Source: Dictyostelium discoideum
Taxonomy: Eukaryota
Direction of reading: 5' to 3'
Assembly (NCBI GenBank): GCA_000004695.1
Contig: CM000153.2
Span: forward strand, 4,928,001-4,992,000
DNA: 64,000 bases
The translations under genes and the position numbers were made by a program. Of this stretch, positions 50,199 to 50,432 are shown in pieces. How positions within the stretch are numbered: position 1 is the first letter of the stretch; every line of letters starts with the position of its first letter. The notes beneath the pieces are model-generated. The model made no database searches, was not told the DNA's origin, and worked only from the letters and a program-made list of their open reading frames with translations.

Positions 50199-50432
50199 AA
50201 TTGTTGATCTTCTAAGAACATTAAAAAAAAAAAAAAATAACCGCAAATTTATTTTTAAAAAATAAAAAATATCTTCTAAAACATTTTTTTTTATTTTTTT
50301 TTAATATTCTAAGAAGGTGACACAAAAAGATCAACAATTTCTCATTTTTTTTTTGATGTTCTAAGAAGATGACACAAGAAGATCAACAATTTAATTATTA
50401 CAATTTAAAAATTAGATAAAAAAAATGATTTA

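Follow-up and report, generated by a model that had tools for sequence, protein, structure and literature searches.

A repeated element upstream of three Dictyostelium discoideum short-chain dehydrogenase genes: a promoter part copied with the gene, with a candidate site for a dimeric factor

The element repeated upstream of three short-chain dehydrogenase (SDR) genes of Dictyostelium discoideum is a part of the SDR promoter that was copied with the gene, and its palindromic core is probably an upstream cis-regulatory site for a dimeric factor. From the sequence comparisons reported here, we give this reading a probability of roughly 60%. The element recurs in the window (the whole 64-kb stretch of DNA that was analysed) because the SDR gene was copied along with its whole promoter. 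Within the element, the left end TTCTWAGAA(G) alone appears to be under cross-species constraint, the AAGAAGA that follows being more weakly constrained. This conservation makes TTCTWAGAAG a plausible candidate transcription-factor binding site.

The GC content of the window is about 20% and its intergenic DNA consists of A/T homopolymers. The SDR genes and their surroundings are as follows.

40885-41751, minus strand: GATA zinc-finger gene, upstream of the SDR cluster
44112-44996, plus strand: SDR copy A CDS, intronless ORF
49120-49989, minus strand: SDR copy B CDS (DDB_G0286849), intronless ORF
50558-51442, plus strand: SDR copy C CDS, intronless ORF
54659-57142, minus strand, and 57885-60428, plus strand: divergent TIG/TgrO1-like (tgr family) pair, downstream of the SDR cluster
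62193-62906, plus strand: counting-factor-associated (CfaA_B_C) gene, downstream of the SDR cluster

Copies A, B and C are near-identical short-chain dehydrogenases (Pfam adh_short, E=1e-53), and an 845-aa ORF without Pfam domains lies between copies A and B. According to a protein look-up, the copy B protein is identical to DDB_G0286849 of D. discoideum AX4. It is present in a 15-billion-protein collection, which contains no exact match to the protein of copy A or of copy C; near-identical SDR copies may be collapsed or differently modelled in public AX4 annotations.

The element was searched for by pattern matching over the whole 64-kb window, allowing up to 3 mismatches, and the result was compared with 100 shuffles. 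The 34-nt element has exactly three matches in the 64 kb and none in the 100 shuffles. Each element lies about 200-250 nt upstream of one of the three SDR genes. As the sequence-only reading had described, the element occurs once upstream of copy A and twice, in direct orientation, upstream of copy C, and a condensed form is found in inverted orientation upstream of copy B.

43883-43916, plus strand: copy A element TTCTTAGAAGATGACATAAGAAGATCAGCAATTT, with its core TTCTTAGAA at 43883-43891
50307-50340, plus strand: copy C distal element TTCTAAGAAGGTGACACAAAAAGATCAACAATTT, core intact
50359-50392, plus strand: copy C proximal element TTCTAAGAAGATGACACAAGAAGATCAACAATTT, with its core at 50359-50367
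50198-50218, minus strand: copy B condensed element (21 nt) TTCTTAGAAGATCAACAATTT, with its core at 50210-50218

The TATA box of copy A lies 136 nt downstream of its element and the ATG 229 nt downstream, and the proximal element of copy C is the positional homologue of the copy A element. Relative to gene B, the condensed element points the same way as the other elements do relative to genes A and C. The direct repeat AGAAGAT that had been noticed inside the element is indeed there, 13 nt apart, and is intact in the copy A and proximal copy C elements; in the distal copy C element, both repeats are mutated, with one substitution each (AGAAGGT and AAAAGAT). The core TTCTWAGAAG occurs four times in the window versus 0.48 expected, the fourth occurrence being at 50209-50218 on the minus strand, and AGATCARCAATTT picks out the same four places, including 50198-50210 on the minus strand. 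The more general palindrome TTCNNNGAA fits all four window cores and nine further copies, with an overall count in the window (24 versus 25.5 expected) that corresponds to chance frequency.

The duplication history was reconstructed by a BLAST comparison of the region against the window and by a MAFFT alignment of the promoters. Three duplicated units and one tandem duplication were delimited.

43825-45048, plus strand: duplicated unit A (promoter, SDR CDS and short 3' flank)
49086-50269, minus strand: duplicated unit B, forming an inverted pair with unit C
50342-51494, plus strand: duplicated unit C, containing the SDR CDS 50558-51442
50294-50392, plus strand: 52-bp tandem duplication (1.9 copies, 91% matches)

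Units A and C are 95.4% identical over 1184 nt (43866-45048 versus 50342-51494), and units A and B 91.4% identical over about 1217 nt (43825-45030 versus 50269-49086), so that homology runs unbroken across promoter, CDS and 3' flank of a unit of about 1.2 kb, as in a segmental duplication. Units B and C belong to an inverted repeat of 2.5 kb (49008-51525, centre near 50266) with 87.7% identity counting indels. The divergent intergenic region between genes B and C is 568 bp long and includes three palindromic cores inside 185 bp (at 50210, 50307 and 50359).

These rearrangements account for the various forms of the element. Its inversion at copy B results from the inversion of gene B itself within the B/C pair, and the presence of two elements at copy C from the 52-bp tandem duplication. 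The condensed form of copy B lacks exactly one 13-nt unit between the AGAAGAT repeats, a pattern expected of a slippage deletion; it derives from a 13-bp deletion between these repeats. The syntenic copy B of another D. discoideum strain (L003) has kept the long form of the element.

In the three-way alignment, conservation is unbroken from the element to the ATG. The promoters of A, B and C differ by 5.4-5.8% (substitutions only) and the element by 3 of 34 positions (A versus C2). The SDR CDSs differ by only 0.5-2.0%, with 0-2 changes per about 100 4-fold sites, and the 3' flanks by 5-19%. Since the CDSs are far more alike than the promoters and flanks, gene conversion (concerted evolution) limited to the SDR CDS is suggested. 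Such a segmental gene duplication with promoter and concerted evolution, marked by similar SDR copies and contiguous homology from promoter through CDS to 3' flank, is nothing unusual; it explains the repetition of the element, not its function. The sequence-only reading had taken retention of the element at three promoters as a sign of selection. This argument fails: the whole 1.2-kb unit was duplicated, its A/T-rich flanks are equally conserved and, within the window, conservation is no higher in the element than around it. More generally, identity between young paralogous promoters tells nothing about constraint. Co-regulation of copies A, B and C is nevertheless expected, since the entire promoter is common to the three copies.

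The same reading had contrasted the element with intergenic DNA made of A/T homopolymer. The homopolymer description is right, but this DNA is not otherwise featureless, as other non-homopolymer blocks are equally retained in the three promoters.

43933-43961, plus strand: copy A, second conserved block AAATTAGATAATAAAAATGATTTGTTGTT, with the GATA-type motif AGATAA inside
50409-50437, plus strand: copy C, counterpart of the second block
50156-50181, minus strand: copy B, counterpart of the second block
44003-44027, plus strand: copy A, block TGCAAAGATTGATTCTTATTTAAAG, with a presumed TATA box at its end and an oligo-T run after it
50466-50491, plus strand: copy C, counterpart of the TATA block
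50097-50122, minus strand: copy B, counterpart of the TATA block

Also kept in all three promoters are AATTATTACAATTAAAAAATTAGATAATAAAAATGATTTGTTGTT, which is A/T-rich, a poly(A) run whose length varies, and TGCAAAGATTGATTCYTATTTAAAAG with a T-run after it. Dictyostelium promoters usually consist of a TATA box, then an oligo-dT, then the start site; by analogy with this layout, the block made of TGCAAAGATTGATTCYTATTTAAAAG and the T-run is presumed to be the core promoter, with the element at a distance of about 113-137 nt on its upstream side.

The second block AAATTAGATAWTAAAAATGATTTGTTG, whose AGATAA is a canonical GATA-factor motif, shows cross-species conservation equal to that of the core, and the GATA zinc-finger gene at 40885-41751 (minus strand) adjoins the SDR cluster whose second promoter block carries this motif. 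A third conserved block, TGAAAATTCAGAAAAAACT, is found at 43781-43799, about 100 nt upstream of the copy A element. Orthologues in four other assemblies have this block too, in one case inverted, and copies B and C lack it. The block includes GAAAATTC, a dyad resembling a heat-shock element. Furthermore, a reading of the region as structured RNA or tRNA was ruled out: no Rfam match reached gathering thresholds between 42000 and 53000, and no tRNA was found in the window.

Homologues were obtained by protein search from D. discoideum, two "cf. discoideum" lineages, D. citrinum, D. dimigraforme and D. firmibasis, and 11 loci were compared, leaving out more distant paralogues (Tieghemostelium, P0013, P0015-17). 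At 4-fold sites, differences from AX4 copy C amount to 0.07-0.14 for the other D. discoideum strain, 0.24-0.26 for D. citrinum, 0.29 for D. dimigraforme and 0.40-0.53 for the next paralogue group. An element-like sequence is found at the same place in nearly all loci, with the conserved IWLITG codons following 242-369 nt downstream. We aligned 13 copies of it (from AX4, the other D. discoideum strain, the two 'cf. discoideum', D. citrinum, D. dimigraforme and one paralogue), which represent four to five Dictyostelium lineages. The invariant columns of this alignment are exactly TTCT-NN-GAA. Copies located upstream of intact genes vary only at the central NN, where either T or A is found and a single A>G change yields TTCTTGGAA. 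The sole half-site that is broken, TTCTTAAAAG, comes from a pseudogene with a stop 39 codons past the anchor.

Among seven representative lineages, TTCTTAGAAG is the best-conserved 10-mer of the promoter, with a mean pairwise identity of 0.92; next come AAATTAGATAWTAAAAATG, at about 0.9, and the TATA region, at about 0.8. For the DNA that precedes the T-run, the mean pairwise identity is 0.14-0.28. The right half of the element (GATCAACAATTT / CAGCAATTTA) is poorly conserved (0.50), and likewise the second AGAAGAT is not well conserved. Hence, the earlier proposal that the element as a whole is a candidate transcription-factor site holds for the left core, which is invariant in 13 copies, and has to be given up for the right half and the second AGAAGAT.

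In the window and the 11 loci, i.e. 198 kb of Dictyostelium DNA, TTCTWAGAA occurs 15 times and 13 of these 15 sites are within 500 nt upstream of SDR genes, a figure that overstates the evidence since the promoters are homologous and not independent. The 14th site is located 644 nt upstream of an SDR gene and corresponds to a condensed-type copy (TTCTTAGAAGATACCAATTT), and the 15th lies inside an unrelated CDS. In the orthologous rps19/LRR-SDR intergenic alignment of three species, about 52% of the columns show no variation, and many other blocks match or exceed the core in conservation; in the proximal 300 nt, the core is among the few conserved blocks that are not homopolymers. The core has the character of a phylogenetic footprint, being conserved above the local background at a 4-fold divergence of 0.25-0.29, in a comparison of species that are close relatives.

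Some members of the family carry an altered core or have none. In the paralogue of the PNP-SDR locus, the palindrome is split by an 18-nt insertion in both AX4 (L009, 2800-2860) and D. citrinum (L005), and TTCTTAGAA is intact at the corresponding D. dimigraforme locus (L006). At this PNP_UDP_1-SDR locus, the 18-nt insertion creates a 13-nt inverted repeat, CTTCTGATATTTT...AAAATATCAGAAG. An AX4 paralogue with 66% identity (L011) is devoid of the core; its D. firmibasis counterpart has TTCTAAGAA. Moreover, about 200 nt including the element are replaced by unrelated sequence at copy A of the other D. discoideum strain. These split, missing or replaced cores indicate that the site is dispensable for some family members. 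The syntenic three-copy locus of assembly GCA_054859355.1 (L003: 3560-3663, 8603-9476 and 10001-11040) shows decay: copy B has become a pseudogene, the ATG of copy C has been lost, and the replacement at copy A is unique and G/C-richer.

The element might be only a passenger sequence, with no function of its own, kept by recent duplication with or without gene conversion because too little divergence has accumulated. We consider this possible, on the unlikely side. The duplication of the whole promoter at about 94-95% substitution identity is what it predicts, as is an element no better conserved in the window than the rest of the promoter; the high proportion of invariant orthologous intergenic columns across three species (about 52%) and the family members that lack an intact core also fit it. 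However, 4-fold sites differ by 25-29% between the species compared, and divergence has affected both the adjoining right half and the DNA upstream while the core was kept. At about 20% GC, G/C positions are the most exposed, and the three in the core are invariant in 13 copies; chance retention of such a 9-10-mer can be roughly estimated at 0.03-0.08 per lineage. In addition, the core is found at the same distance in paralogues with 79% (L006) and 68% (L010) identity, for a background of about 1-2 per 189 kb. At the other end, the element could be viewed as a recombination or duplication junction or the end of a mobile element, whose internal repeats promote slippage and which marks the boundary of the duplicated block. 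The A~C homology begins just 17 nt upstream of the element, and both the 52-bp tandem duplication and the 13-bp deletion occurred at or in it; but the A~B homology reaches about 55 nt further upstream, neither terminal inverted repeats nor a target-site duplication is present, and the 198 kb contain no copy that is unlinked to an SDR gene. The full element always sits at one position upstream of an SDR gene, and a transposable-element end or a MITE would be expected in dispersed copies, independent of a host gene family. Since the element occupies the same promoter position in D. dimigraforme and 'cf. discoideum', whose orthologues are single-copy and unduplicated, the junction or mobile-element explanation was rejected as highly improbable.

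The form of the core invites comparison with known types of sites. Like the GAS sites bound by mammalian STAT5, it is a palindrome of 9 bp in which 3 nt separate the TTC and GAA half-sites, the pattern TTCNNNGAA that describes such sites matching the four window cores and the nine further copies; like them, it lies upstream of the core promoter and is present in tandem copies. Here, however, the host is an amoebozoan, the tandem cores are 52 and 97 nt apart, and the resemblance is one of sequence form only. A heat-shock element also has inverted TTC/GAA half-sites, and GAAAATTC lies about 100 nt upstream in copy A and its orthologues. In heat-shock elements, however, the spacer between the inverted nGAAn units is 2 nt (TTCnnGAA). 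Since the half-site spacing is N3, not N2, in every copy, the core was not retained as a heat-shock element.

That the core is a GAS-like site of one of the Dictyostelium STATs (STATa-d), placing the SDRs under STAT signalling of the DIF or hyperosmotic type, seems to us clearly unlikely. In its favour, TTCTAAGAA, TTCTTAGAA and TTCTTGGAA all fit TTCN3GAA and the variation is central only, as expected if a dimer reads two TTC/GAA half-sites. The same nonamers are in a list of STAT5A/B ChIP-seq sites from human T cells (PMC3907443), and Dictyostelium does possess STAT proteins (PMC1888708). However, a 9-bp resemblance is weak evidence, TTCNNNGAA is at chance frequency in the window, and the STATc hyperosmotic-shock paper, in its text and supplements, makes no mention of an SDR gene. 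Furthermore, Dictyostelium STATa is reported to recognise direct or inverted TTGA repeats (Kawata et al. 1996/1997), not TTCN3GAA. The TTGA elements of the ecmA/ecmB promoters, which are STATa sites, are likewise short repeated upstream elements in the same organism, and TCAA/TTGA tetramers occur here in the AX4 right half GATCAACAATTT and beside the TATA box (GATTGATTC). But the conserved part is TTCTWAGAAG and contains no TTGA or TCAA, and the right half that bears TCAA is not conserved across species. A literature search retrieved no paper tying these SDR genes to STAT signalling. The more specific proposal that TTCTWAGAA is a GAS-type response element read by a Dictyostelium STAT, with the SDR family under STAT signalling, is in our view decidedly improbable.

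We therefore favour the reading of the element as a piece of SDR promoter copied with the gene, whose core would be a cis-regulatory site. Its anatomy, its duplication history and the invariance of the core between species are shown by the sequences; the binding of a factor, the identity of this factor and the direction of its effect are inferred. A homodimeric sequence-specific transcription factor would bind the TTC-N3-GAA palindrome, possibly with an auxiliary contact to the downstream AAGAAGA, and the core would act as an upstream activating or regulatory site for the SDR family. The distance between the palindrome and the TATA box varies (about 85-137 nt) because of length changes of the poly(A) tract; such variation suits an upstream element rather than one of the core promoter. 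Since the core is palindromic, one site could serve both divergent genes, and the cores at 50210, 50307 and 50359 could thus be shared by genes B and C. In the literature searched, including that on the CudA dyad and Dictyostelium STAT sites, nothing was found on this element or on these SDR genes.

If the core is functional, it provides a compact cis-element for a small family of Dictyostelium dehydrogenases, for which natural variants exist: one, two or condensed copies in AX4 and an element-less copy in another strain. Otherwise, it is ordinary promoter sequence carried along by gene duplication. On the whole, this looks like an ordinary promoter element that gene duplication has carried along and that leaves a clean footprint across species. 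If a STAT reads the core, TTCN3GAA recognition would extend to amoebozoan STATs. The metazoan grammar of GAS half-sites would then already be present in Amoebozoa beside TTGA sites, and a lineage-specifically amplified SDR family, with bacteria as its nearest non-dictyostelid relatives, would be under STAT signalling.

The copy number and the layout of the SDR genes in this neighbourhood vary among strains and sibling species. For instance, the gene is single copy in cf. discoideum and D. dimigraforme, and D. citrinum has three tandem copies at a different locus. Among the 120 top matches of a search with the copy C protein, the only named eukaryotes are dictyostelids and the best named non-dictyostelid matches are Bacteroidota (41-45% identity), from the genera Chitinophaga, Flavobacterium, Mucilaginibacter and Dyadobacter. 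Judging from these similarities, the SDR family may be of old bacterial origin.
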